Source: an uncultured Actinomycetota bacterium (lineage in GTDB: Bacteria; Actinomycetota; Actinomycetes; Mycobacteriales; QHCD01). Taken from it: 64,000 nucleotides of DNA. Below are positions 41,387 to 57,826 of the stretch, piece after piece (within the stretch, counting starts at the first letter, position 1; every line of letters starts with the position of its first letter). The stretch is from contig CAWHER010000001.1 in the NCBI GenBank assembly GCA_963828605.1, positions 696,318 to 760,317 of the forward strand, read 5' to 3'. The translations under genes were made by a program, and so were the position numbers. The notes beneath the pieces are model-generated. The model was not told where the DNA came from, did no database searches, and saw only the letters and a list, made by a program, of their open reading frames with translations.

Positions 41387-42399
41387 CCGCGACCACCGTC
41401 CGGCCGGCGCAGGATCGCCGGCGGCTACCTCACCTCCATGGCCTGACTTGGGTGACCTGGCGGCAGCACCGCATGGCACTGGCCGGCATCGTCGTACTGC
41501 TCGGCGGCACCGCCGTGCTCCTGGTGTTGACCGGCCTGCCCATGCACCGCGCCTACACCAAACTCGGTTTGGCCGCGTGCGGAGACATCTCGAGCAGTGC
41601 CTGCGTGGAGCCGTTCCGGATTTTCAGCTCGGGCTACCAGGGCTGGGCGATGTTCCTGCCCCGATTCCTGATGTTCCTCCCGGCCGCGGTCGGCGTCTTC
41701 GTCGGAGCGCCGCTGGTCGCCCGGGAATTCGAGTCGGGCACCTTCCGCTTCGCCTGGACGCAGGGCCGCAGCCGGGTGCAGTGGATCGCGGCGAAGCTCG
41801 CGTTGCTCGGCGTCGCGCTCAGCGCACTGGCACTCGCCTTCTCGTTCCTCTTCGCGTGGTGGTTCGGCCCATGGGAATCGATCATGGGCCGGATGATCAG
41901 CGGCCAGGCCTACGAGGTCCTGGGCATCGTCTTCGCCGCCCGAACCCTCTTCGCCTTCACGCTCGGAGTGCTGCTCGGCGCTGTTCTCCGGCGAACCGTT
42001 CCGGCCATGGCCGCGACCGCCGCGATCTGGTTGGCCGTGGTGTGGCCGTCGGTCGTCTACCTGCGCCCCCTGATCGTCAAGCCGCTCATCGCGCCGGACT
42101 CCGCCTCCATCGGACTCGACAAGGCCTGGGCGATCAGCGCCTGGATCCAGGACGGGGCCGGGCGCCACCTCAGCACGGATGCGGTGACCGGTCTCCTCAA
42201 CCGGGCGCGCGCCACCGGCGTCAGCACCCCGGCTCAGTTCGACGCGTGGCTGGCGAAACGGCACTACACGCAGTGGGTCTCCTACCAGCCCAACAACCGC
42301 TTCTGGCACTTCCAGCTCATCGAAGCGGGGAGTTTGGTAGTGCTTGCGCTCGTGCTCGCGGCCGCGTCGGTCTGGTGGCTGCGCCGCCGCGCCAGGTAG
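41383..42399 (+). CDS. ABC-2-type transporter permease
   Basis: It has six predicted hydrophobic segments and the motif REFESGTFRFAWTQGRSR. There is an ATGA overlap with the ATPase gene. Confidence 0.75.
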   Translation: MTATTVRPAQDRRRLPHLHGLTWVTWRQHRMALAGIVVLLGGTAVLLVLTGLPMHRAYTKLGLAACGDISSSACVEPFRIFSSGYQGWAMFLPRFLMFLPAAVGVFVGAPLVAREFESGTFRFAWTQGRSRVQWIAAKLALLGVALSALALAFSFLFAWWFGPWESIMGRMISGQAYEVLGIVFAARTLFAFTLGVLLGAVLRRTVPAMAATAAIWLAVVWPSVVYLRPLIVKPLIAPDSASIGLDKAWAISAWIQDGAGRHLSTDAVTGLLNRARATGVSTPAQFDAWLAKRHYTQWVSYQPNNRFWHFQLIEAGSLVVLALVLAAASVWWLRRRAR

Positions 42400-42472
42400 C
42401 CCTCCCCTCTTGATCACGCCGGAAGGGGGCCACTGCACCGCTGCAGAACCGGTGCGGGATACCGTCCGTCCC

Positions 42473-43786
42473 ATGCCGGTTCCCGCCCGGACCGCAGCCC
42501 AGGCGCGCATCTCGGCGGACGACGCCCGCCGGATCGCCCTGGCGGCACAGGGTTTCGCCGATCCCCGCCCGACCGGGCGGGTCGACGCGCGGCACGTACG
42601 TCGGGTGCTTGGCCGGATCGGCATCCTGCAGCTCGACTCGGTCAACGTGCTGTGCCGGTCGCACTATCTTCCGGTGTTCGCGCGACTCGGTCCGTACCCG
42701 CGGGAGCTGCTCGACCGGATGGCCTGGGGCGGCCGGCGCCGCGAGCTGTTCGAGTACTGGGGGCACAAGGCGTCGCTGCTGCCGCTGGACACCCGGCCGC
42801 TGCTGCGGTGGCGGATGGAGGCCGCGCTGCGCCATGTCTGGGGCGGTGACCTCCGACGCTGGCGGTCGCTGCTGGACCCGGCCCTGCTGCAGGCACCGTG
42901 GGCGGTGATCGAGGGAATGTGGCGGCTCGCCGCCGACCAGCCGGAGCTGGCCGCGCAGGTGCTCGCGGTCATCGCCGACCGCGGTCCGATCAGTGCCGCC
43001 GACGTCGGGCTGACCGCGCAGCGGCGCCTCGAGCATGGCGGGCTGTGGAACTGGAACGACGTGAAGGTCGCGCTCGAGTGGTTGTTCTACTGCGGCACCG
43101 TGACGACAGCGACGCGGCGCGGCTTCGAGCGGATCTACGACCTCACCGAACGGGTCCTCCCGCCGGCGGTTCTCGCCGAAGCGTCACCGGGCCAGGATGA
43201 CGCGCAGCGCGAGCTGATCCGCATCGCCGCGCGGGCCCAGGGCATCGCCACCGAGCGCGACCTGCGGGACTACTTCCACCTCCCCGCCGACCACTCGAAG
43301 GCGCGGGTCGCCGAGCTGGTCGAGACGGGTGAACTAGCGCCGGTCCGCTTCGAGGACGTCGGCCCCCTGCACTACCTGTGGTCCGGCGCCCGAGCGCCCC
43401 GCCGGCTGGCGGCCCGGGCGCTGCTGTCGCCGTTCGACTCACTGATCTGGAGTCGGGACCGGGCCCTCCGGCTGTTCGGGTTCCACTACCGGATCGGGAT
43501 CTACACGCCGGCGGCGAAGCGGACCCACGGCTACTACGTGTTGCCGTTCCTGCTGGGCGACCGGCTGGTCGCCCGGGTCGACCTCAAGGCCGACCGGCCC
43601 ACGTCCACCCTGATGGTGCAGGAGGCGCACGTCGAGGCCGGTGTGCGCGGGGCCGGGGTCGCGGCGGAGCTGGCCGACGAGCTGCGGTTGATGGCCGGCT
43701 GGCTGGAGCTGGACCGGGTGGCGGTGCGACGCCGGGGCGACCTGAGCCGGCCGTTGTCCCGCGCGATCGGGGCCGCCGCGTCGTGA
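42473..43786 (+). CDS. YcaQ/AlkZ-family winged-helix DNA glycosylase-like protein (HTH_42)
   Basis: ARRIALAAQGFADPRP...VLGRIGILQLDSVNVLCRSHYLPVFARLG...YWGHKASLLP is the typical family N-terminus. It has a Q-L-D motif (the QxD variant). Confidence 0.7.
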   Translation: MPVPARTAAQARISADDARRIALAAQGFADPRPTGRVDARHVRRVLGRIGILQLDSVNVLCRSHYLPVFARLGPYPRELLDRMAWGGRRRELFEYWGHKASLLPLDTRPLLRWRMEAALRHVWGGDLRRWRSLLDPALLQAPWAVIEGMWRLAADQPELAAQVLAVIADRGPISAADVGLTAQRRLEHGGLWNWNDVKVALEWLFYCGTVTTATRRGFERIYDLTERVLPPAVLAEASPGQDDAQRELIRIAARAQGIATERDLRDYFHLPADHSKARVAELVETGELAPVRFEDVGPLHYLWSGARAPRRLAARALLSPFDSLIWSRDRALRLFGFHYRIGIYTPAAKRTHGYYVLPFLLGDRLVARVDLKADRPTSTLMVQEAHVEAGVRGAGVAAELADELRLMAGWLELDRVAVRRRGDLSRPLSRAIGAAAS

Positions 43787-43808: not shown

Positions 43809-44504
43809 ATGCCTGCTCGGACCGCGTACGACGGTGCGCTCGGCGACTTCTTCGCCAGCAACGCCGACACCAGTCCCTACAACGCGCACACCGACCGCCC
43901 GGCGATGCTCGACCTGGCCGGACCCGTCGACGGATCGCGGATTCTCGACGCGGGCTGCGGTGCCGGGCACTACGCGGCGGAACTCGTGGCGCGCGGAGCT
44001 GACGTGGTCGCGGTCGACGGCAGCGAGACGCTGCTGGAGCACGCCCGCAGGCGCCTGGGCGGACGGGCCGAGCTTCACCTGCAGGATCTGGACGAGCCGC
44101 TCCGATTCGCCGACGCGTCGTTCGACGGGGTGGTGTGCGCTCTGGTGCTGCACCACGTCACCGACCGCCCGCGGCTGCTGGCCGAGTTGCGGCGCGTCCT
44201 GCGTCCGGGCGGCTGGTTGCTGGTGTCGACCACCCACCCCACCGCGGACTGGCACCGTTTCGGCGGCTCCTACTACGCCGAGGACTGGGTCGACATGGCG
44301 CTGGCGGACGGCCGGTGGGAGATCCGCTTCCAGCGCATGACCCTGCAGACGTTCCTGGGCGAGCTGCTCGCCGCCGGATTCGTGCTGGAGAAGCTCGTCG
44401 AGCCGCGCCCGGCTCCCGACCTCCGGGACCGCGACGCCACGGCCTACGACCGGCTGCAGCAGGCTCCGTGCTTCCTCGCGGTCCGGGTCCGCCGCGACGC
44501 TTGA
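43809..44504 (+). CDS. class I SAM-dependent methyltransferase
   Basis: Motif I is ILDAGCGAGHYA, and the post-I acidic residue is in VVAVDGS. Confidence 0.8.
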   Translation: MPARTAYDGALGDFFASNADTSPYNAHTDRPAMLDLAGPVDGSRILDAGCGAGHYAAELVARGADVVAVDGSETLLEHARRRLGGRAELHLQDLDEPLRFADASFDGVVCALVLHHVTDRPRLLAELRRVLRPGGWLLVSTTHPTADWHRFGGSYYAEDWVDMALADGRWEIRFQRMTLQTFLGELLAAGFVLEKLVEPRPAPDLRDRDATAYDRLQQAPCFLAVRVRRDA

Positions 44505-44513
44505 CCCCTCGGG

Positions 44514-45775
<1,262 letters not shown>

Positions 45776-45779
<4 letters not shown>

Positions 45780-46117
45780 AGCGGCCAGAACGGCCTCAGC
45801 TCGACCGCACCGAAACGGGCGACCGGATGCTTGGCCGCCACCTCGATGGCCTCGTCGAGGTCTTTGCACTCGAGAATGTCGAAGCCGGCCATCTGTTCCT
45901 TCGTCTCCGCGAACGGCCCGTCCACGACCAGGACGTCCTCGTCGCGGACGCGTACGGTCGTCGCGTCACTCACCGGCCGCAGCCGGTCCCCCTGCAGCCG
46001 CACCCCGCGGCCGTCCATCTCCGCGACCCAGGACTCCGTCGCCGGGCCCATGGCGGCGTCCTCCTCCGGGGTGAGCTTCACAGCCTCATCGGCGCAGATC
46101 AGCAGCATGTACTTCAT
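45776..46117 (-). CDS. YCII-related (DGPF) domain protein
   Basis: MKYMLLICADE...VVDGPFAETKEQMAGFDILECKDLDEAIEVAAKHP is the family pattern. A strong RBS (AGGAGGAGGA) lies upstream. Confidence 0.85.
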
Positions 46118-46158
46118 GGTGTCCTCCTCCTGTAGACGATATATACGACGCTCAGCCG

Positions 46159-46182
46159 AACGGATTCCGCAGCGTGCGTTCC
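46159..46182 (-). promoter_or_regulatory. candidate ECF-type promoter (GGAAC-N15-CGTT) upstream of the YCII/sigma operon
   Basis: The minus strand reads GTGACGGAACGCACGCTGCGGAATCCGTTCGGC about 45-65 nt upstream of the YCII ATG. The spacer is one nucleotide shorter than the usual 16-17. Confidence 0.25.
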
Positions 46183-46240
46183 GTCACCATGACGACGAGC
46201 GAGATCGCCAGGATGGACACCTCCCCGCGAAAGGACCCCG

Positions 46241-46480
46241 ATGGGGACCCGCAGCGCGCCGACCCGGGTCGTGGAGCACGCGGCCGCATTCAACGCCGCC
46301 GGCCGGTCCGGAGAATGGGACGCCTTCGCCGACCGGTTCGCCCCGGACGCCACCATGCACATCTCCGGCGTTCCCGCCGGGCCCTTCACCGGCCGGTCCG
46401 AGATCGCCCGTGCGTACGCCGAGCAGCCGCCCACCGACACGCTGGCCATCGACGAGGTGAAGTCGGCCGGTGCGGTGGAC
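46241..46480 (+). pseudogene. NTF2/SnoaL-like protein gene, apparently truncated at the 3' end
   Basis: VVEHAAAFNAAGRSGEWDAFADRFAPDATMHISGVPAGPFTGRSEIARAYAE...LAIDEVKSAGAVDRV looks like the first roughly 80 aa of a SnoaL-like fold. After that the frame runs antisense into the 3' end of gene D and turns into Arg-rich junk. Confidence 0.45.
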
Positions 46481-46484
46481 AGGG

Positions 46485-48047
46485 TCAGGCGTCCTCGGCG
46501 AAAACGTCGAAGCGCAGATGAGAGCTGGGCGGTCCGGTGACCGGCCTGCTGCTGCGCTCGACCCAGAGCACCGGCCGGCCCGCGGTGTCGCGGGCGAGGA
46601 CCGTGCGCCGTTGCAGGCGCACCCCGTTGCTGGCGATCGCCGTCGGGGCCAGCTCGTGCCCGCGGCCGAGACCGGTGCCCGACGGACCGCCGATCAGCCT
46701 CGAGACCGGGCCGGAGCGCGGCACCGGCACCGGGCCGGTGAGGTCGGCGAGCACGGCCTGCCGCCAGTAACCCGACTTCCCGTCGCCGGCACCCACCACG
46801 ACCGCCGGGTCGTCGGCGGGGTCACCGGCGCGCACCCGCTGGTAGGGGTGCCAGTGGTCGGGCAGGGTGGTCGACGGCAGGTAGCGGAAAGTGCGGGTGC
46901 CGGTGCGGGTGGTCTCGGCGACGGCCGCGTCGGTCGCGGCATCGGGCAGCAGCTGGAGCCCGTCGGCGCGCAATTCGACGGCCCACGCGAGGTTGGCGTC
47001 CTCGTCGACGCCGATCAGGACGTCGTCGAGCACTTCGCCGGTGTTCGGCGCGACGGCGACCGGCCAGACGAGGAGTTCGGACTCGGCGAGGCCCGTGGTG
47101 TGGAAGAGCGACCACGCACCGGGGCCGGTGGCCGGCGGAGCCGGCAGGGGCCAGACCTGGTCGAAGCTGTCCTTCACGGTGACGTCGGACAGCCGGACGA
47201 GTACGCCGACGGACGGCGGGTCCTCCCCCGCGACGGGTGGCGGCGGGACGTGGAAGGTGAACCAGTCGTCGGAGTGCGCCACGGCGACGTCGATCAACAG
47301 CATGGTCGCCAGGTGCGACCGGTCCGGCGCGAAGCCGCCGATGTCGACCGCCCGGTCCTCCAGCTGCCACCAGCGCGGGTTGGGCGCGCCGGGATAGTCG
47401 AGCCGGCTCGGGACGACGAGCCGGCGCTGCGTGGCGGTCGCGTCGGCGGGCGGGACGACGACCGCGTCCGGGTCACCGTCGACGGTGAACCAGTCGACGT
47501 CGCCGCCGTCATGGGCCGGTGCCCGTAGCGCCGTGTCCTCAGCCGCGAACGACGCGGCGTAGTCGAGCTCACTGCTCGACCACCGGTCCGGCAACGGCAC
47601 CGGAACGTCGGCCCAGATGGCGTCGCCGGCCAGCACGCCGGAGTCGAATACGGCCCGGCCGTCGACCCCGTCGGAGAGTCGGTCGTACGGCGGTGCCAAC
47701 GTGCCGAAGGCGAAACGCGCTCGGCCGTCCGCGTCGAGCAGCGGCGCCGCGGCCCGGCCGAGGCGCAGCCGCCGCCCGACCGTCCACCAGTCGCCGGGTT
47801 CGGCCTCCAGCAGCGCTTCGGCCGGCACGACGGTGGGGTCGAGGTCGGGACGCGTCGCGTCGTAGCTGATCGGGATGTGCCGGGAGGTCACGTCGATCGC
47901 GACCGGGCTGGAGGCGTCCTCGCCGTGCTGCTCGCCGAGCTGCCACTGCCGCGCGAGGAACCAGACCGGGTCGGCGACCCGGGCGCGGAAGCCTTCGTCG
48001 AGGTCGGGCCGGCCCGGCTCGAGCCAGAGATAGAGCGGCGTGGTCAT
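46485..48047 (-). CDS. giant-operon gene D: 520-aa protein of unknown function
   Basis: This is a long clean ORF. An ATGA overlap (48044-48047) links it to the gene C stop; the alternative ATG is at 48056. Its motifs are DPVWFLARQWQLGE, NPRWWQLEDRAVDIGGF, AHSDDWFTFHVP and the C-terminal SHLRFDVF. I found no signal peptide, TM segment or catalytic motif by eye. Confidence 0.8.
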   Translation of the reverse strand: MTTPLYLWLEPGRPDLDEGFRARVADPVWFLARQWQLGEQHGEDASSPVAIDVTSRHIPISYDATRPDLDPTVVPAEALLEAEPGDWWTVGRRLRLGRAAAPLLDADGRARFAFGTLAPPYDRLSDGVDGRAVFDSGVLAGDAIWADVPVPLPDRWSSSELDYAASFAAEDTALRAPAHDGGDVDWFTVDGDPDAVVVPPADATATQRRLVVPSRLDYPGAPNPRWWQLEDRAVDIGGFAPDRSHLATMLLIDVAVAHSDDWFTFHVPPPPVAGEDPPSVGVLVRLSDVTVKDSFDQVWPLPAPPATGPGAWSLFHTTGLAESELLVWPVAVAPNTGEVLDDVLIGVDEDANLAWAVELRADGLQLLPDAATDAAVAETTRTGTRTFRYLPSTTLPDHWHPYQRVRAGDPADDPAVVVGAGDGKSGYWRQAVLADLTGPVPVPRSGPVSRLIGGPSGTGLGRGHELAPTAIASNGVRLQRRTVLARDTAGRPVLWVERSSRPVTGPPSSHLRFDVFAEDA

Positions 48048-51000
48048 GCCGGCCATCCGGCGAGGAAGCTCACGGGCTCCGAGGCGTGCACCAGCGGCAT
48101 CGGCGTCGCGTAGGGCAGGCCGCCGCGATCACCCGGCCGGGCCGCGCGGGCGTGCGCCAGCTGCCGCGTCTGCAGCACCACCTCGAGGAGGCCCGCGGTG
48201 TCCAGCCGCGTCGCCGGGTCGGGCGGCACGGCCAGCAGAATCGCCTGTGGAGCACGGGATTTCGGTGCGTTGAACCCGAAGGTGGCGGCCGTGGTGTGCC
48301 GCCGGCCGGGCACCGAATCCGTCCAGGCGTCGAGCGCGGCGACCGCCACCCGCGCCGGCGGGTGCACGGCGGCCGGACCGTAGGCGGCAAGCACCGGTCC
48401 GGCCGGGAGCCACGGATCGGTGGAACCACCGGGCGCCGCAACGGCCGCCGGCCAGGGCGTCCCGAACTGGTGCGCCTCAAGCGCGGCGAGCCGCGGCCGG
48501 ACCGCGGCGACGATCTCCAGCCACGCCTCGTCGAGTGCCGGCGCGGCCCTCAGCGCCGGCAGCAGGTCCGCCGCGACGACCGGCAGCACCGGCAGCGCGG
48601 CGTCGCCGGCCAGCGCGCGCAGTGCGGCCCGCCGCAGGTTCAGCGCCGCATCGGTCGTCGGCCCGGGCGGCACCGCGGGGTTCGCGGTCAGCCGGTCGCC
48701 GAGCGCCGCGGCCAGTGCCGCCTGCATGTCCGCGGTCGACGGTACGGCGGCCGTCGGGTCGTCGGGTGCTACGACGCTGAGGTCCACGTTCCACCGCCCG
48801 GCCGTCGCGGTGATCTCGTCGTCGCTGCCGGCGGCACCGGGGTCGAGCGCGACGACGGCGTCGTGCACCGTCAGCGTCAGCCCGCGCAGCCGGTCCAGCC
48901 GGGCGTCGAGGTCGGTGCCCATCGCCGTGCGCAGGTCGTCGTCGGCGGTGGCCGGCAGACCGTCGTAGGACCCGCCGACCAGCGTCGGCACCGGCGCGTG
49001 GGGGTCACCGCCGCCGAGTACGCCGGCCAGCCGCTGCCGGTCCGCGGGCGTCGCCTCGGCGCCCAGCTCACCGCCGACCAGCGCGGCGAACGCCGGATCG
49101 GCGACGTCGGCGGGCGCCGTACCGGCCGTGAGCGGCGGAACGTCGCCCTCGGGCAGCAGCACCCACGCGCCGACCCGCACCGTGGTGGCCGCGCGTGGGG
49201 TGCGGATCGCGCGCAGCTCGGGTGGCGCGCCGAGCCCGGCGGCAGCCTCCATGGCGGCGTTCGCCAGATCCGCCCGGCCGGTGACCAGCGCATGCACGCC
49301 GTCGGCCATCAGGAGATCGGCGTAGGTGTCCAGAACGTCGTCCAGCGGCGCCAGCCGGTCGGGCAGGTCCGCCGGTAGACCCGCGACCAGGGCGCCCCTG
49401 CGCGCCGCCGCGAGCACCGCCGCGCCGTCACAGACCCGGCGGTTGTCCTGCCCGCCGGCCAGCGGGTAGGTCTCGCGCAGGACGCGGACGACGTCCCAGT
49501 CACCGGCCACCGCCTCGACCTCCAGGCCGAGCGCCTCGTAGGGGTGCACGCCGAGGCGCACCCGCTCGGCGAGCGCGATCGAGCCGCGGACCTTCGCCGA
49601 GTCGATCGTCAGGTCCCAGCGCTTGTCGGCGGAATGCCGCACCGCGGCGTCCCGCAGGAGTGCGGCGGTCAGGGCCTGATCGCGCGACGGTGCGTGCAGC
49701 AGGCCGGCCGCGGTCGCCCCCGGCGTCAGCGCACCCGTCGCGGCGGCCGGCCGCGGGGCGTCCACCCATCCGTAGGCGCCGAGCAGGAACGGCGCGCCAT
49801 CGGTGGTCATGCTCCGCAGGCGACGCTCGGCGAGCCCGGTCAGCCAGGGATCGACGCGGAATGCCGCCGTATCGAGTGCCGCGAGCGTCGCGCCGAACAA
49901 CGCGTCGTGTTCATCCGCCCACAGGTCGGCGACGGCCGCGAGTGCCTTCTGCACCTCGCGGAACCGCGTGGCGACCAGCTCGCCGTTGCCGTCGGTGGCC
50001 GTCTCCAGCTGGGTCACCGACGACTCACCGCCGCGCATGACGTAGCTGCGGTAGGTGTTCTCGTCGTCGAGCGGCAGCGGCTGGGCGAGATCGACGACTC
50101 CGGCGGCCTGCCAGCGCGTGATCGCCTCGCCGACCACGGCGCGCGCGGCGATCAGTGACTCACGGAACAGGTGTCCGACGAGGCCGAGTTTGTCGAAACC
50201 CTGGAAATACAGCGGCTCCGGCTCCATCGTGCACAGCTCCTTGAGACGCTCCGGGTCGTCAACCGCATCGGAGGGCGGGCCGGGCACAGGGCCGGCGTGG
50301 GCGGCGGCGGCGATGGGGAACGCTGGAGCCGGCCAGTTGCGCCAGCTCACCGCGGTGTCGGCGTCCCATTCGGTCAACGTGACCGGCTCAATCCCGGCCA
50401 TGATCCGAGCCACCTGCACGGCGACGAGGCCGGCCACCGGCCGCACCTGCCAGTGCCGGCTGGGTGCGTGCAGCCCGAGCACGTCGAGCAGCCCGTCGGT
50501 GTCGGCGCCGTCGACCCACGGATGGGCCGCCTCGGCCGCAGCGGCCGAACCGGCACACCACGCCAGCGCCCAGCGCAGGATCCGGTCCTCGACCGGAGTC
50601 AGCGGATCGCCGGGATCGGCCACCCACGACGTGAAGGACGACGTGGGCAGCAGGCCGTAGGGCTGCTCGCCGACCCGGATCGCCGGTCGCGGACCCTCGA
50701 CGGCCAGGTTGCGGACCGCCCACCCGGCGAGATCGATGTCCGGCTCGTCTCCGGCGACGACGTCGCGCAACGCCCGGCCCCACAGCACCGGCCAGAATCC
50801 GCGTACCGCAAGGGATCCGGGCTCGCGGTAGTCCAGATCCCCGCCGAGCATCGGAAGCGCGCCCGCAGGGACCCGTCCGGTCAGCGCCGTGAGCACCGCC
50901 CCGGTGGACTCCTGCGCCGCCGGATCGACGTGCAGCAACGGGTAGACGGAGTCGGCGTCCGCACCGAAGTCGGTGGTCGGCTCGCCGTCCACGGTGTTGG

Positions 51001-51710
51001 TCGGCGTACCGGGCGCGAGGACGGCCAACCCCGCAGCGGCGTTATGCGCGTCGACGAGGTCGGCCGCGCCGGTGTCCCCCACCCCGAGTACGACGAGTGC
51101 CTCGAGTGCGGGCGGGTCGGCGCCGATGTCGATGTCGACGGCGAGGCCGAGCTCGACGGCGCGCCGATAGGACAGCCACCAGGTGTCGGGCAGGGTCCCG
51201 GCGGCAAGTTCGGCGGAGCCGGCGAAGGACGTGATGTCGAGGTCGGCGCCGATCCCGGCGAGGTCGAGCGCAAGCGTCGCCGCGAGCTGCCGACTGCCGT
51301 CGGCGTAGGCGAACCACACCTGCAGCTGCGTCGGCAGGCCGACCGCGCCGTGCACCTGCAATCCGGACGGCTCGGTCTGGTCGGTGCGGTCGACCCTCAG
51401 GCCGCCCGCGCCGTCGACGACGACGCAACGCCGCCACAGACCAAGACCACGTCCGGCGCCGACCGCAGCCGCGAACGAGGCGAACGCCGCCGCCTCGTCG
51501 ATCGGCGGAGCGGCCGTGATGCCTGCGACCGCCTCGACCAGCCGGTCGAGTTCCTCCGGCGACGGTGGCGCGACGGTGCGGGGTATGGAGAAGTCGTCGG
51601 GGTAGATGCGGATCCGCAGCATGCCACTGCGGCACGCCGTCGGCGCGTTCGGCCGGCGGGACGAACCGGGTCTCGAGCCGCACTGGGGCGAGCACCTCGA
51701 CGGTTGTCAT
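48044..51710 (-). CDS. giant-operon gene C: roughly 1,220-aa protein of unknown function (apparent frameshift near 51625)
   Basis: The 1,192-aa ORF begins MLRIRIYPDDFSI. Immediately upstream, a second frame reads MTTVEVLAPVRLETRFVPPAERADGVPQ from an ATG at 51708-51710, which overlaps the gene B stop (ATGA). I recognised no motifs. Confidence 0.75.
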
Positions 51711-54257
51711 AGCAGCGGTCCGATCAGTACCCGGACGGGAAGGGCGAAATGGTTGTAGGCGTAGTTGGCCGCGGATGAGTCGGCCGACAAGCGCCGCGCT
51801 CTGTGCGAAGAAGCGGTAGCCGGCCGGCGGTTCCTCCAGCACCACCCAGTAGTCGGCCAGCCTTCCCGGGTCGATGGGGAAGCCGAAGAAGGTGATGTCG
51901 GCGCCGATGGTGCCGGTGAAGACGTGTTCGACCCGGTTGGCGTCGACGAGCACGTCGCCGGCACCGGGCGGTGTGAACGCGGCGTCGGCGGCGTAGAGGT
52001 AGACGACGGTCGAGGGATAGCGCCGGAACAGCGGCGTCTTGAAGGCCACCACCGCCTCCGCGGCGCGCCCGCCGTCGACGAGCGCCGGGGCGCCGAGCGG
52101 CTTCGCCTGCGGCCAGTTCTTGATCGGGAGGATGTCGAGCTCGACGCTGAGCTGCGCTGCCAGAACTTGCGCAGCGGCGACCAGCGGGTGACGAGCGGGA
52201 TGTTGCGCCAGCGCAGCTCGCCGCCGGCCTGCAGGTTGGCTCCGGTGAGCAGCGCCTCGACGAACGCCGGGTTGGTCGCCAGGGCGACCACGTCGCCCTC
52301 GATCAGGTCACCAGCGCCCGGCAGCATCCAGTCCGGGGCGGACGCGGACAGGAAGCTCCACAGCGGCAGGTCGAGTTCCGGTTCGACCTCGACCGGGCCG
52401 ATGCCGGTGCGGCCGGGCAGCGTCGCCAGCACCCGCACGCACTGCGGGCGGCTGATCGCCGGTCGGGTCGACGGCCCCGGCGACGGCGCCGGCGAGCCCG
52501 GTGAGGTCGACCGGCTCGCACGGTGTCGGCGGCGCGAACTCGTCGACCCAGCCGGTCCATCCCGAGACCTGCGTCGTCGGGTCGGGATGCTCCTGGGTGT
52601 TGAGGAACGCCTGCACCGCCGCGCGGTCGGGCCGGCCGTCCTTGCCGGGGGCGAGAGCAAGCAGCGCCGCGGTGAGCTCCGCAGGACTGGGCAGCCGCCC
52701 GCCGCCGAGCAGCCGGTCCAGAATGCGGTCGGCGAGCTCTTCGTCGCCGGCGGCTGCGGCCTCGACGGCGGCCTTCGTCGCCTCCTCGACCCGGCCCGGG
52801 TCGACGTCGCGCCGGGGCGGGATGTCGGCCGGGTCGTCGGGGGGTGCCGGGCACCGGTTGGCGCTGCGGAGTACGGCGCCCAGATCGCCGGCACCGTCGG
52901 CCGCGCGGGCGGTGCGCGCCGGCCCGGGACGTAGCGCGCGGCGGGCCGCCGACGAGAACAGCGCGCGGGACAGGCCCGGAGTGTGGCCGGCGACCGCGTC
53001 GAGGACGGTCCCCCCGTCGGTGGGCAACCGGCCGAGCACGGGGAGGAGGACGGCGAGCAGATCGGCCGCGGCGGCGAGCGTCGGCACCCGGCGCCGCCAG
53101 ACGGAGCGACTCGCCTCGACTCCCAGGGCGACGTGCCGGATGCGGTCGTCGGCGACGGACAGACCGGCCAGCTTGGTGGTCGCGGCGTCGGCGATCCGGT
53201 CCTGCCACTCGATCGCGTTCCAGGCACCGATCCCGGCCGCGCCACGCGCCCGCGGGTCGCCGCGCAGCTCGTCGATCCACCCGCCGGCGGTGAACGTCTC
53301 CTGGTCGGCGAGCGTCGCGAACGGCGCGTCGTAGCGCGGTGCGGTGACGACGCCGCGGCCGTCCGGGGTGACGATGCGGTCGCTGAGGTGAGCCGTCTCG
53401 CTCGCCACGTCGGGAGGCGGCGGCTGGTCCGCCGGATCGGGTCCGGCGACCGGGTCCGCCGGCAGCCGCAGTGCGCCGGCGGTGCTGAGCACCCAACTGT
53501 CCGGATCCCCCGGGCCGCGCCGGAGGTAGGTGACATCGGCTCTGCCGAACGGCGTCCCGCCGGCGGCATCGATCGCGGCCAGGTCGGCCTTGTGCAGCTT
53601 CGCGGCCAGCTCCGGAAAGTCGCCGAGCGGCCCGGTCCGGAACGTCCAGGTGTCGTAGCACGGGCAGGTGACCGGCGCCGTACCCGTCCAGGCGTCGGCG
53701 CCGTCAGGTGTGAACGCCGGCACCAGGCACGCGACGTATTCGGTCTCCTGCGCGAACGGGGCCGGCGAGAGCAGCCGCGCCACCCGGCGGCCGTCGACGT
53801 CGTGCACGTGCGCCCACTGGAACGAGTCGGCCAGCGCATGGATCTGCTGGGTCGCCGTGCCGAGACCGACCTGTCCGTCCGGGCGTAGGACGATCTCGTC
53901 CGGCGTACGACGGCCGACGACGAGCACCAGCCACGGGCGCAGCACCGCGCCGACGGCAGCGCGGGGCGTGTAGCGCCACGGCAGGTCGACGGCGGAGAAC
54001 TCGATCAGTGCGACCTTGGGCTGCTCGGCGTCACTCGAGCCGGGCGCCGGGAAACGCCGGGCGATGGCGCCGACCGCGAGCCGTTCGACGTCACCGGGAC
54101 CGAACAACTCGTAGTCGGTGTCGATCAACCGGGTATCCGCGGGGTTGGCGAGGTCGGCGATGCCCACCGGCACCGTGCTCTGCAGCCGTCCGTCGACGAC
54201 GGTGGTGGCGCCGATCCGCAACGCCTTCTCGGCCCGCGAGAAGTAGGTGGCCGCCAC
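51707..54257 (-). CDS. giant-operon gene B: roughly 850-aa protein of unknown function, broken by three apparent frameshifts
   Basis: The 649-aa ORF (V)AATYFSRAEKALRIG...PWRYTP...RPWLVLVV...ACLVPAF is sensible down to ...LAGAVAGAVDPT (about 52455). It continues in another frame as RPAISRPQCVRVLATLPGRTGIGPVEVEPELDLPLWSFL...WSPLRKFW, down to about 52160. A further frame reads AAQLSVELDILPIKNWPQAKPLG...VAFKTPLFRRYPSTVVYLYAAD...PAGYRFFAQSAALVG, down to about 51785. The last piece is DSSAANYAYNHFALPVRVLIGPLL followed by the stop. Confidence 0.7.
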
Positions 54258-56504
54258 TCAGACCACCCCTGCCAGCGAGACCGGCGCCGCGGCGTCGACG
54301 GCGGCCAGCGCGACCGAGTCGTTGTACCGCGCGAACTGGTGCGCGGCGGTCGCGCTGGTGAACGTCCCGCCCGCGACGGTGGTCCACTCCTCCGGATCCA
54401 CCGCGACCATCGACGTCGGGTCGCTCAGCGCGGGTGGCCGGCGGGCCGCGTCGGTGAGCGCGGCCATCTCCCCCAGCGCCAACACCTCACCGACGAGGAT
54501 GTGGCGGTGGCCGCCGGTGATGACGATCTGCTGGACCTTGCGGTTTTCGGCCACCGGGTCGAACGGCGGCGGGTCGGCCAGCGACAGCTCCCGGCCGCTC
54601 GCCAGCACGTCGAAGGGCGGCCGATTCACCGCTTCGGCCGAAGTGAGGGTGACGTAGCTGCCCGGGCTGAACCGCTCGGTCACGTCGGCGCCGGCCGTGG
54701 TCACGACGACGCCCTGGCCACCGTCCAACGGACGGCCGTCGACCCGCTCGATGAGAAGCCCGAGCGGGGCCCGGGTCTGCTCGATCCGCAGGGTGCCGGT
54801 CGGCGGTACGGCGGCCACCGAGTCCCGACCGGGCCGCGGCGCCAGGACGACGTCCGGGTCGCCGACGCTGCCGGCATGCACGTTGTCGGTCTTGCCGAAC
54901 TCCTCGGCCACGACATCCAGCAGTCGCGGCGGGCTCGGCAGCGTGTCCGACGGGCCGCTGCCCAGGGTGAACGTCTGGTCCCAGGAGATCGAGAAGAGGA
55001 AGACGTCGATGCTGAGCGACCCGCGGATCACGACCGGGCCGGGCCCCGCGATCGACCCGTCCAGGGTCACCGACGCGAAGCTGAAGCCTTCCACCGATAC
55101 GTCGAAGCCGGCCGAGATCTTCGCCTCGAAGTGGAACGGCCGGAACTGCACGATCGCGTCGAGCTGGATGAAGCCGTGCGCCTCGATGATGAGGTCGATG
55201 CCGACCTCGAGCCGGCCGCCGAACTGCACCGAGTTGGAGGTGATCGCGAAGTAACCTTCGACCCGGATGTCGATGATCGAGATCGGGTTGTCGATGGCCA
55301 GCCCCACCCGGCGCATCGCGGGGATCCGCGCCGGCTCCGGATTGAACCCCGGGTAGAAACCGCCGACCGACACGACGAAGTACCCGTTCGAGCCCCAGCT
55401 GAACCGCATCGCGGCGTCGCCGTAGATCTCGAAGATGCCGAGTACGTGGCTGTCGACCAGGCTGGCATCGATCGACACCAGTTCCTGCACCGGATCGATC
55501 TCGCCGAGCAGATCGAGGCGCAGGTTCAGGACGAACTCGAGGCCGGGTATCGCCGCCCTAGCGACGCCGAGGATGACGACCTTGCCGGTCGGGATCTCGA
55601 CGACCACGCCGAGGTCGAGCGACAGCAGGCTGCCGGACGGCCCGAACGACAGCCAGGACACCCGCAGCGACGGGCCGACGAGGTGGGTCCCCGGATGCGC
55701 CGGGAAGAGGTGGTCGGCGGCGGTCACCAGTGCCAGCGGCGATGCCGGCGGCCGGGTGGCGAAGAGCACGTCGCCGGCGGTGCCGGTCCGCACGGCCGCA
55801 CGCAGCGCGTCGGTGTCGGCGCGGCGATTGACCCCGACGATGCCGCCCACGCGGTCGAGGGAGAAGCCGAAGGACAGCTGGATCGGCGGCAGGAAGGCGA
55901 TTCCGAGGATCGCCAGGAACGACGGCTCCCCGTCGATCATCGCGAGCACAGCTGCCGCGCTGACCTGCGCCGGGCCGAGGGGCAGTTCGAGCGTGCCGCC
56001 GTAGCCGCCGGCACCGGGCAGCCGCACGATCGATCCGCCGCCGGGCAGGCCACCACCGAACGGCGAGGACAGCGACGCGGCGATCTCGCCGACCTCGAAC
56101 GGACCGACCGGGATCGGCGCCGGCACCGTCCCGTCCGGCAACGTCGGCGGCTGCACGACCAGGGTCGACGACGCCACCGACAGATGCACCGGCCCGATGT
56201 CGACCTCGCCGTGGATGCCGCTGGCGGCGATGTCACCGAGGTCGTCGGCGAGATCTGCGAGCCCAGGCACCTCTGCCAGCACACCGAGCAGGAAGTCGGC
56301 GAGGTGGCCGGCGATCTGGTTACGGGCGGACTCCCACGCGGCCTGCGCCCCGGCCACCGCCAGCGGGTCGCCGGCGAGCGCCGTCTCCAACGACTGGGCG
56401 GCGGCGACCAGCTGCGTCAGTTCGCCCTGCAGCTGCGGGTCGGCGCCGGGACTGAGCGCATCACGCAGCCGAACGGCGTACGACGTGACCTCGCCAGCGG
56501 CCAT
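54258..56504 (-). CDS. giant-operon gene A: 748-aa protein of unknown function (helical N-terminus, Gly-rich linker, long beta-rich region)
   Basis: This is a clean 748-aa ORF whose stop TGA is followed directly by the GTG of gene B. It has the Gly-rich stretch GGGLPGGGSIVRLPGAGGYGG. Repetitive beta-like segments follow (LSLDLGVVVEIPTGKVVILG, FGGRLEVGIDLIIEAHGFIQLDAIVQFRPFHFEAKISAGFDVSVEG). From memory it resembles the DUF6603 family, but I have not verified this. Confidence 0.8.
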   Translation of the reverse strand: MAAGEVTSYAVRLRDALSPGADPQLQGELTQLVAAAQSLETALAGDPLAVAGAQAAWESARNQIAGHLADFLLGVLAEVPGLADLADDLGDIAASGIHGEVDIGPVHLSVASSTLVVQPPTLPDGTVPAPIPVGPFEVGEIAASLSSPFGGGLPGGGSIVRLPGAGGYGGTLELPLGPAQVSAAAVLAMIDGEPSFLAILGIAFLPPIQLSFGFSLDRVGGIVGVNRRADTDALRAAVRTGTAGDVLFATRPPASPLALVTAADHLFPAHPGTHLVGPSLRVSWLSFGPSGSLLSLDLGVVVEIPTGKVVILGVARAAIPGLEFVLNLRLDLLGEIDPVQELVSIDASLVDSHVLGIFEIYGDAAMRFSWGSNGYFVVSVGGFYPGFNPEPARIPAMRRVGLAIDNPISIIDIRVEGYFAITSNSVQFGGRLEVGIDLIIEAHGFIQLDAIVQFRPFHFEAKISAGFDVSVEGFSFASVTLDGSIAGPGPVVIRGSLSIDVFLFSISWDQTFTLGSGPSDTLPSPPRLLDVVAEEFGKTDNVHAGSVGDPDVVLAPRPGRDSVAAVPPTGTLRIEQTRAPLGLLIERVDGRPLDGGQGVVVTTAGADVTERFSPGSYVTLTSAEAVNRPPFDVLASGRELSLADPPPFDPVAENRKVQQIVITGGHRHILVGEVLALGEMAALTDAARRPPALSDPTSMVAVDPEEWTTVAGGTFTSATAAHQFARYNDSVALAAVDAAAPVSLAGVV

Positions 56505-56687
56505 GCCAACCCTGTTTCGCCCGAAGTTGGCTCACCCTAACGCGGGGGCGGGTCGCCATCCGTCCGCGACGCGCGCGTCGGGCCGGTCGTCGGTGCATTG
56601 GCGCGGCGGAACGGGTCGACGCCCGCGTGGACGGCACGCCGGGAATCCGGTCGCCGGGGCGACCCGGGGCCCGTTACCCTCGCGCGG

Positions 56688-57224
56688 GTGACCGGCGACC
56701 CGACCCCGTTCCTGTGGCTCTGCGGCCCGTCCGGCGTCGGCAAGTCCAGCGTGGGGTTCGAGATCTTCGCCGAGCTCACCCGCGCCGGCATCAAGACCGC
56801 CTACCTCGACATCGACCAGATTGCGCTCTGCTATCCCGCGCCGGCGGGCGATCCGGACAACCACCGGATCAAGGCACGAAATCTCGGCGCGATGTGGCCG
56901 ACGTACCGGTCGGACGGTGCCCGCTGCGTCGTGCTGTCGGGGATCATCGAGTCCCGCGACCTCGCCCGGTCCTACGCCGACCAGCTACCGGACGCGGCGT
57001 TGACGTTGTGCCGGCTCCGCGCGGGCCGGGATGAACTGCGGCGCAGGTTCATCGGCCGGGGATGGCGCACCGACCTGGTCGACGACACCGTGCGCGACGC
57101 GGATGCCCTCGATCGCAGCGACTTCGCGGACCTGTGCATCGACACCGACGGGGTGCCCGTCCCGGAGGTAGCCCGGCTGGTCCGCGAGCGGGCCGGCGGG
57201 TGGCCACCAGGTCTCGCGCCGTGA
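56688..57224 (+). CDS. P-loop NTPase / small-molecule-kinase-like protein, paralog 1
   Basis: (V)TGDPTPFLWLCGPSGVGKSSVGFEIF carries the Walker A motif, and the conserved block DPDNHRIKARNLGAMWPT is present. The start is chosen by analogy with paralog 2; the ATG at 56598 is the alternative. It is divergent from the giant operon. Confidence 0.7.
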   Translation: MTGDPTPFLWLCGPSGVGKSSVGFEIFAELTRAGIKTAYLDIDQIALCYPAPAGDPDNHRIKARNLGAMWPTYRSDGARCVVLSGIIESRDLARSYADQLPDAALTLCRLRAGRDELRRRFIGRGWRTDLVDDTVRDADALDRSDFADLCIDTDGVPVPEVARLVRERAGGWPPGLAP

Positions 57225-57826
57225 CCGACCGTCCCACACCCGTTCTCTGGGTCTGCGGTCCCCCGTGTGTCGGAAAGTCGACGGTCGGGTGGGAGATCTT
57301 CGCGCAGCTCACGGCGTCGGGAATCACAGCAGCATACGTCGACCTGGCACAGATCGGATTCTCCCGGCCGGTGCCGGATGACGATCCCCACAACCACCGG
57401 ATCAAGGCGCGCAATCTGGGTGCGATGTGGCCGACGTTCCAGGCCGCCGGGGCTCGCTGCCTGGTGATCTCCGGTGGTGTCGAAGACCGCGACGACGTCG
57501 CGCGGTACGCCGGCGCACTGCCCGGAACGGCGCTGACCCTCGTGCGGCTCCATGCCGGGCGAAGTCAGTTGGCGGAACGGATCCAGCGCCGCGGTCGGGG
57601 CGAGGGGCCGTCGATACCGGGCAACGAGCTGAAGGGGCGCAGCGCCGCATTCCTCGGCCGCTTCACGGAGCGGGCGATCGCGGACGCCGATGACCTCGAG
57701 CACGCGAAGCTCGACGCCCTGCGCGTCGACACGGACGGGCGATCGGTCGCGGACCTGGCGGCCACGGTGCGCACCCGGGCAGGCGGCTGGCCCGACCTCG
57801 CCCCGCTGCATTCCGCATCAACGTGA
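57221..57826 (+). CDS. P-loop NTPase / small-molecule-kinase-like protein, paralog 2
   Basis: (V)TDRPTPVLWVCGPPCVGKSTVGWEIF carries the Walker A motif, and the block DPHNHRIKARNLGAMWPT is present. There is a GTGA overlap with paralog 1. The last 6 codons and the stop lie inside repeat copy 3. Confidence 0.75.
   Translation: MTDRPTPVLWVCGPPCVGKSTVGWEIFAQLTASGITAAYVDLAQIGFSRPVPDDDPHNHRIKARNLGAMWPTFQAAGARCLVISGGVEDRDDVARYAGALPGTALTLVRLHAGRSQLAERIQRRGRGEGPSIPGNELKGRSAAFLGRFTERAIADADDLEHAKLDALRVDTDGRSVADLAATVRTRAGGWPDLAPLHSAST

Follow-up and report, generated by a model that had tools for sequence, protein, structure and literature searches.

Introduction

Tc (ABC) toxins are among the closest described counterparts of the locus reported here, both being encoded by an operon of very large proteins without signal peptides and without a nucleoside triphosphatase (NTPase). 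A further likeness, to extracellular contractile injection systems (eCIS), the type VI secretion system (T6SS) and tail-like bacteriocins (tailocins), follows from the view proposed below, in which the products would be cytoplasm-built particles that act on other cells. Our subject is a cassette of four genes, A to D, on the minus strand at 46485-56504 of a 64,000-nucleotide stretch of DNA (the window) from an uncultured Actinomycetota bacterium (GenBank assembly GCA_963828605.1, contig CAWHER010000001.1, positions 696,318 to 760,317). Its only point of contact with a described family is gene A, which belongs to Pfam PF20248 (DUF6603). This entry lists one domain with no function assigned and does not record the obligate partnership with B, C and D. 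In the literature searched, no paper named DUF6603 or PF20248 and none described the cassette. The cassette is outside every catalogue tested and appears, on present evidence, to be categorically new, while its function is something that we infer.

Results

We analyzed the gene layout of the cassette from its open reading frames (ORFs) and the sequence at each junction. Both confirmed the initial annotation, which had placed four minus-strand genes head to tail at these positions and had quoted motifs that are all present in the translations. Within a window of ca. 72% G+C, the G+C content of third codon positions (GC3) in coding frames is 0.88-0.92 across four consecutive minus-strand coding regions, from 56504 down to 46485. 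The cassette and its leader are composed as follows.

56505-56549, minus strand: leader upstream of A, 45 nucleotides (nt) conserved with the cassette, by DNA similarity to the metagenomic relative L059
54258-56504, minus strand: gene A, 748 amino acids, intact ORF, first gene of the cassette
51707-54257, minus strand: gene B, ca. 848 amino acids after repair, GTG start at 54257, three insertions
48044-51710, minus strand: gene C, ca. 1221 amino acids after repair, ATG at 51710, one insertion
46485-48047, minus strand: gene D, 520 amino acids, intact ORF, most conserved of the four proteins

The GTG of B directly abuts the TGA of A (...GTC TGA GTG GCG...), the ATG of C overlaps the B stop (CTGCT-ATGA-CAACC, 51710-51707) and the ATG of D overlaps the C stop (GGC-ATGA-CC, 48047-48044). 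The one abutment and two ATGA overlaps claimed earlier are therefore exact. The D ORF as listed extends over 46485-48056, with the ATG at 48047 being the most likely start and giving 520 amino acids. In the leader, a TAGGGT hexamer ca. 35 nt before the ATG of gene A is a possible actinobacterial -10 element, from which we infer a promoter. Scans of the cassette for consensus sigma-70 promoters and for terminators were empty.

The same four genes were found in distant organisms. A scan of one genome per GTDB species (185,579 representatives) with a D alignment returned 56 loci, which span Actinomycetota, Acidobacteriota, Alpha-, Beta- and Gammaproteobacteria, Myxococcota, Planctomycetota and Chloroflexota. 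When the four Longispora proteins were used as tblastn queries, A-B-C-D occurred in the same order in 46 of the 58 loci fetched, with the remaining loci being truncated contigs; all four genes are intact in 38 of the 58. A orthologues are always the first gene of the cassette and junctions in the comparison loci are mostly -4, -1 or less than 30 nt. The window conforms to this pattern, having four homologues on one strand, in order and with short or overlapping junctions. Because of the coding-frame GC3 values and the shared order, the arrangement is far beyond chance. Recurrence in several phyla, which the initial annotation had stated for similar motifs, was thereby substantiated for all four families, far outside the circle of close relatives, in at least six bacterial phyla as well as haloarchaeal plasmids.

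Intact copies are present in isolates of Cupriavidus, Pseudoxanthomonas, Microbacterium, Nonomuraea, Streptomyces, Actinoplanes, Micromonospora, Frankia, Geodermatophilus, Kitasatospora and Longispora. Copies on plasmids or secondary replicons were seen in Nocardia, Paraburkholderia, Streptomyces, Rhizobium and three haloarchaea. For D, a word-indexed search gave 786 significant homologues, of which the best 120 are 61-93% identical and all unnamed, and an exhaustive HMMER search with a D profile gave 3,323 clusters (50% identity) at E<=1e-3 and 902 at E<=1e-30.

Comparison with L059 delimits the unit. A and C of the window are 95% and 90% identical to those of L059, and the DNA similarity of 91% spans only 56549-46483, that is, from 45 nt upstream of A to 2 nt after D. 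The flanks differ, with a methyltransferase of 59% amino-acid identity as the sole common gene. Since similarity stops at the cassette edges while the flanks differ, the alignment indicates that the cassette is transferred, or else kept, as one discrete unit. Neither an integrase nor meaningful repeats, direct or inverted, were found at the cassette ends. Taken as a whole, sequence comparison identifies the cassette as a widespread, horizontally transferred four-gene unit in fixed order.

Two metagenome-assembled genomes (MAGs) each carry two cassettes of different clades: SMAG_U9354 (L036, L045) and MFD04850.bin.2.297 (L008, L058), the D proteins of the latter being 61% and 24% identical to the window D. 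Such paired divergent cassettes suggest that the variants are not redundant. Two candidate additions to the gene set were rejected. An apparent extra gene between B and C, in a gap of ca. 500 nt in some loci, proved to be an N-terminal extension of C, and an apparently conserved gene upstream of A in 8 loci is an antisense shadow ORF of a longer A.

Gene A aligned with positions 25-499 of the 502-position PF20248 profile at 295.3 bits (E 1e-87). This score is above the curated gathering threshold of 27 bits, as are those of A from L063, L064 and L068, so that the DUF6603 likeness named in the initial annotation was correct. RefSeq labels A orthologues 'DUF6603 domain-containing protein'. The protein has a helical N-terminus and a Gly-rich linker, followed by a DUF6603 region rich in beta strands. 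In case of B, C and D, no match was obtained in Pfam, NCBIfam, PADLOC or PHROGs (all fragments). Pfam scans likewise assigned no family to 27 diverse B and 27 diverse C orthologues and no domain at all to 240 C homologues, while the 5,027 models of PADLOC-DB 2.0 gave 0 families for six window fragments at E<=0.01. Profiles of A, B, C and D searched against PDB sequences at E values up to 10 returned only noise, with none below E 0.17, and hhalign comparison of B, C and D with each other showed no detectable relationship and no internal paralogy.

All four core proteins are strongly acidic. A regular-expression scan of the four found no Walker A, HExxH, GxSxG or lipobox motif, and hydropathy analysis found no 19-residue window above Kyte-Doolittle 1.85 and no segment resembling a transmembrane helix, upholding what had first been judged by eye for Walker, HExxH, lipobox and transmembrane features. 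Neither a signal peptide nor a C-terminal sorting signal was recognized by eye, regular expression or hydropathy, including in the enlarged variant proteins, and by the same means the set shows none of the marks of secreted or surface proteins (signal peptide, lipobox, transmembrane segment, sorting signal). One PD-(D/E)xK-like match in D was rejected: it falls in a Gly-rich stretch, and the consensus of 75 sequences has R, not K. As far as motifs can tell, the core proteins are without NTPase, nuclease or recognizable catalytic motif.

Several features connect the four products physically. End-to-end C-D fusions were found in seven representative proteins of 1,678-1,877 amino acids, one of which is a RefSeq Nocardia protein, and two more proteins join the C-terminal half of C to D. 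On Rhizobium lusitanum plasmid p_3, a pair of overlapping, coupled genes takes the place of B, and another pair that of C. Gene fusion and gene fission, combined with stop and start codons that overlap, classically mark the subunits of one assembly. Because of the stop/start overlap or abutment, the C-D fusions and the B and C fissions, the A-D products very probably form one multi-subunit complex in fixed proportions, with ca. 3,340 residues per set. Coupling, fusions and fissions agree with the earlier proposal that the genes encode a large structural or assembly complex and not a metabolic pathway, which is likewise best worded as probable.

To model C, two homologue sets were collected and 60 sequences with mutual identities below 62% were picked. 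The AlphaFold model of complete Longispora C (60% identical to window C) had a mean predicted local distance difference test score (pLDDT) of 87.8 and a predicted template modeling score (pTM) of 0.75. It begins with a long beta hairpin at residues 4-31, which holds the conserved LPVRLETRF...LRxRxYPD motif, and continues through alpha/beta regions to a large helical core (ca. 470-990) and a C-terminal region rich in beta strands (ca. 1043-1115). Foldseek searches with this model returned no PDB match at E<=0.001 (best E 0.89, template modeling score <=0.07) and no significant match among BFVD viral models (best E 0.37). C is thus, to judge from the model, apparently a new large architecture. 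Given 75 close homologues, AlphaFold2 produced a poor model of D, with pLDDT 53.6, because the alignment was nearly without diversity (effective number of sequences at 62% identity 1.3), and this model was set aside. Neither the sequence profiles of A-D nor the fold of the C model placed the proteins with a solved structure. The initial expectation that no confident profile or structure match to a characterized machine would be found therefore held: Pfam, NCBIfam, PADLOC, PHROGs and PDB were empty for B, C and D, as was Foldseek for the C model.

Foldseek also aligned the C model very weakly with lambda tail-tip proteins (probability 0.12-0.20); we regard these alignments as too weak to be evidence. 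They could be cited, along with large proteins without secretion signals, horizontal spread and lysozymes near one locus, for the cassette being a structural module of an unrecognized virus or mobile element that forms a capsid or tail-like particle. This explanation is highly improbable, given that no PHROG matched, that no relative was found in 2.9 million IMG/VR contigs and that no terminase, portal, integrase or end repeats were found at the cassette. The lone 'phage' record (MT835531) is an unverified contig of ca. 77% G+C with a variant cassette. This record (L060; GenBank MT835531.1 18106-40042, 'UNVERIFIED: Bacteriophage sp.', human faeces, 75-79% G+C) looks like a misfiled actinobacterial contig, and its variant has an enlarged B of ca. 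1,300, C of ca. 1,800 and D of ca. 680 amino acids.

Variant cassettes differ from the four-gene form of the window in their adjoining genes and in domains added to the core. Directly after D, cassettes of the clade nearest to that of the window encode a cytoplasmic-looking S8 peptidase of ca. 800 amino acids (1,236 in Nocardia). It was found by tblastn in 17 fetched loci and also in L065 and on the Nocardia plasmid (NZ_CP109567), which like Cupriavidus thus has a five-gene version, and is absent from the window, L059, Longispora and Microbacterium cassettes. Other lineages have an M64 peptidase or an M14 carboxypeptidase in the same position. The middle clade has an A with an N-terminal extension of ca. 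400 amino acids, preceded by a PhoD-like protein of ca. 750 amino acids. In Streptomyces longwoodensis, the gene upstream of A encodes 1,514 amino acids with PG_binding_1, B holds FG-GAP/VCBS repeats and an RHS protein is encoded nearby. Halalkalicoccus has a C of 3,124 amino acids with decapeptide repeats, annotated 'BGTF surface domain', and a D with two lamin-tail domains (LTD x2), while a small LCAT-like lipase and a 915-amino-acid protein are encoded before A. Two PG_binding_1 domains are fused to metagenomic D P0372, and in Rhizobium, two GH25 lysozymes, a glucosaminidase and a CVNH lectin lie within 15 kb of the cassette.

We tentatively favor, at rather less than even confidence, an analogy in which the products form a complex without an NTPase that would be built in the cytoplasm and would serve as a toxin-complex-like carrier or scaffold for hydrolases on cell envelopes, the target probably being other cells. 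Once assembled, the A-D complex would act at an envelope, most likely another cell's, much as toxin complexes or bacteriocin-like particles do. Variants would build surface-binding modules (FG-GAP/VCBS, lamin-tail, peptidoglycan-binding) into B, C or D and would combine with interchangeable hydrolases, either S8, M64 or M14 enzymes after D or PhoD-like or lipase-like enzymes before A. The four-gene form of the window is without a partner hydrolase, and any activity would have to lie in the core itself, where the obvious candidate is A, the beta-rich protein of the DUF6603 family, which has a single hydrophobic stretch. An envelope is suggested because the domains grafted onto B, C, D and the upstream partner are extracellular-type binding modules only, because the only recurrent neighbors are swappable hydrolases and because secretion signals are missing, as in Tc toxins, tailocins and eCIS. 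Further pointers to an envelope are the GH25 lysozymes and glucosaminidase near the Rhizobium cassette and the RHS protein near that of Streptomyces longwoodensis. Cytoplasmic assembly is suggested because signal peptide, lipobox and transmembrane segment are lacking even in variants with surface-type domains.

The same links to PG_binding_1, M14 carboxypeptidase, GH25 lysozymes and glucosaminidase could instead point to the cell's own wall, with a large scaffold placing peptidases and cell-wall enzymes for its remodeling in an envelope or developmental structure. Many hosts are indeed filamentous or sporulating actinomycetes. However, hosts also include Gram-negatives, planctomycetes and haloarchaea with very different envelopes, there is no signal peptide or membrane anchor for reaching the wall, and an accessory, plasmid-borne cassette in a few dozen of the 185,579 species representatives is unlike a core envelope function. 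We therefore consider this reading decidedly improbable.

One variant cassette has a gene for a CHAT (caspase-like) protease convergent to it, and an NB-ARC protein is encoded close to the variant of Streptomyces longwoodensis (CHAT/NB-ARC sites: L067 18605-20665; L062 17186-19648). CHAT and NB-ARC proteins are typical of conflict systems, and their proximity here may be coincidence. An intracellular conflict system, acting against phage or by abortive infection, is an unlikely reading of the cassette, in which a sensor scaffold would activate the S8, M64 or M14 peptidase, lipase or phosphoesterase on infection; in the four-gene form, the effector would be encoded elsewhere or would be the core itself. 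Its patchy, transfer-driven distribution with plasmid copies, the variable hydrolases beside a conserved core (a typical defence-system pattern), the CHAT protease and NB-ARC protein near two variants and the two divergent cassettes per genome (L036/L045; L008/L058) are all consistent with this. Yet none of the 5,027 PADLOC models matched, no NTPase, nuclease, TIR, SIR2 or similar module was found, one would hardly expect a cytoplasmic sensor to be fused to peptidoglycan-binding, lamin-tail and FG-GAP domains, and the window neighbors are housekeeping-like with no defence island.

Action at the envelopes of other cells also has a number of points against it. The window cassette has no gene for lysis, secretion or immunity beside it, the same is true of most loci, and nothing shows the complex leaving the cell. 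Only a minority of variants have surface-type domains or hydrolase neighbors, no effector gene is part of the four-gene form, and the peptidases could equally well serve in maturation or be the effectors of a defence system inside the cell. Between an Actinomycetota and an Acidobacteria copy, D is ca. 70% identical, an unusually high conservation that is not expected of an arms-race receptor binder. On the structural side, a good model was obtained for C alone, D reaching only the pLDDT given above, and Foldseek searches of PDB and BFVD gave the C model no likeness to Tc toxins, phage tails or pore formers.

The copy in the window differs from complete cassettes in that B and C are not intact. 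As reference we used L059, which has all genes intact with lengths of 748 (A), 848 (B), 1221 (C) and 521 (D) amino acids and, as stated, 91% identical DNA. The lengths given initially for B (about 850) and C (about 1,220) stand as repaired lengths, but neither protein is a single ORF here. Four unpaired insertions, all within 820 bp and none in a long homopolymer, separate the two sequences.

52439, minus strand: +1 insertion in B, GTGCGTGCGG versus GTG-GTCCGG in L059
52147-52148, minus strand: +2 insertion in B, unpaired versus L059, with frame return in GC3 plot and tblastn
51785, minus strand: +1 insertion in B, last ca. 25 codons moved into the frame ending at TGA 51707
51622, minus strand: +1 insertion (an A) in C, GTGGCATGCTG versus GTGGC-TGTTG in L059

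The +2 insertion at 52148-52147 restores the B frame ca. 290 nt after the +1 insertion at 52439; read straight through as sequenced, B stops at 52308 after 649 amino acids. A GC3 frame plot and tblastn with the intact Longispora proteins gave a frame path of 2-1-2-1 for B and 2-1 for C, with Longispora B aligning at 54245-52437, 52447-52157, 52136-51810 and 51793-51710 in alternating frames. In C, the insertion sits 88 nt into the gene. Here, the inserted A (GGC-A-TGC) itself makes an in-frame ATG that opens a 1192-amino-acid ORF at 48044-51622. A C protein of this length could thus still be translated, shortened at its N-terminus and without the conserved first beta strand (VLAPVRLETRF).

Substitutions between the window and L059 are 4-5 times as frequent at third codon positions as at positions 1 and 2 in all four genes, and for B beyond the first frameshift the values by codon position are 0.033/0.017/0.133. 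Because substitutions still fall mainly at third positions, even after the first B frameshift, the breaks in B and C appear to be either very recent inactivation or sequence errors. With three shifts in B and one in C, this copy may be inactive. Whether it is a dead remnant, with real insertions, a B cut to 649 amino acids, a lost C N-terminus and nothing functional made, is close to an even call that leans slightly towards no. Decay is favored by four unpaired insertions inside 820 bp outside long homopolymers and by the other long ORFs of the window, including A, D and the remainder of C, which are intact and speak against a generally error-ridden assembly. That same clustering in one stretch, however, resembles a local consensus problem more than random decay. 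Frameshifted copies among the comparison loci occur only in long-read metagenome bins, which makes local assembly error a live alternative, and the unchanged codon-position pattern past the first shift, together with GC3 values that follow the ancestral frames, means that any inactivation would be very recent.

Genes around the cassette in the window were also inspected. An S-adenosylmethionine (SAM) methyltransferase of the UbiE/Methyltransf_11 type is convergent to D within 0-4 kb in the window, L059 and Longispora, and was located as follows.

43809-44504 of the window, plus strand: SAM methyltransferase, 59% amino-acid identity between window and L059
18563-19273 of L059: SAM methyltransferase
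11510-12262 of L001: SAM methyltransferase

The contrast between cassette proteins that are 90-95% identical and methyltransferases that are 59% identical points to either recent exchange of the cassette or paralogous methyltransferases. Directly after D, the minus strand at 44514-46449 encodes a 111-amino-acid ORF without a family match, a YCII-domain ORF and a 451-amino-acid sigma factor of the extracytoplasmic function (ECF) type with a DUF6596/TPR C-terminal region. The YCII and sigma genes are an ordinary actinobacterial pairing and are absent from other cassette loci. Divergent from A, at 56598-57823 on the plus strand, lie ORFs for two small P-loop proteins with weak AAA_16/APS-kinase and AAA_33 matches, which overlap in different frames and are not conserved beside the cassette elsewhere. 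At 42344-43786 on the plus strand, an AlkZ-like DNA glycosylase (E 5e-62) is encoded after an ABC-2 transporter permease gene. AlkZ-type enzymes are often self-resistance genes in biosynthetic clusters for DNA-crosslinking natural products.

Discussion

We carried out a focused analysis of a four-gene cassette that occurs in thousands of distinct versions in microbes from soil and other environments. Of its four proteins, three are without a family entry, a solved relative or a mention in the literature searched, and a conserved protein set of ca. 370 kDa without an energy-transducing component is hard to place in known categories. Should the cassette be an antagonism device, it would represent a new weapon class and provide new protein scaffolds; should it be a defence system, it would be of a kind missed by current catalogues. 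Either way, the cassette defines three new protein families and, with C, what appears to be at least one new large architecture. Intact copies are found in obtainable cultured strains, namely Cupriavidus gilardii CCUG 38401, Microbacterium yannicii DSM 23203, Geodermatophilus amargosae DSM 46136 and Longispora sp. K20-0274, and the question of function is therefore directly testable.

In its most specific form, our proposal is that the cassette encodes a new four-component, NTPase-free machine, with folds that have no solved relative, which is exchanged among bacteria and haloarchaea and, once released, would bind envelopes and carry or position hydrolases. We regard this combined statement as possible, though on balance doubtful.

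In comparison with known systems, the cassette shares with large-protein anti-phage systems of PADLOC-DB 2.0 an accessory, horizontally spread character and interchangeable hydrolase neighbors. It differs from them in having no model match, no ATPase, helicase or nuclease and extracellular-type domains fused to the core. Contractile injection and tail-like systems resemble it in their variable binding modules and in their occurrence in bacteria and haloarchaea. Unlike eCIS, T6SS and tailocins, however, the cassette lacks genes for a sheath, tube, baseplate (gp25/gpJ), spike, PAAR or AAA+ ATPase and has no PHROG or Pfam match to such systems, a tail-like fold was not detected in C, and searches of Pfam, NCBIfam, PHROG, the window neighbors and IMG/VR gave no ground for assigning it to this class. 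As for Tc toxins, four different core proteins stand against an A pentamer and a BC cocoon, the four-gene form has no toxin cargo gene, and the C model has no Foldseek match to TcA, TcB or TcC structures (best PDB E 0.89). Neither B, C and D nor the orthologues scanned (27 each for B and C) matched a VRP1, TcA, TcB, SpvB or RHS family, so that both the TcA-type domains (VRP1, neuraminidase-like, TcA_TcB_BD) and the SpvB/MidN/RHS cocoon that define a Tc complex are missing. The likeness to Tc toxins nevertheless extends beyond gene size, since in both cases subunit genes are split or fused between lineages and binding domains are inserted in a large scaffold in some variants, and an RHS protein adjoins one cassette variant. 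If the proposal is true, the cassette would add a new class of inter-microbial antagonism particle that stands beside Tc toxins, tailocins/eCIS and umbrella particles.

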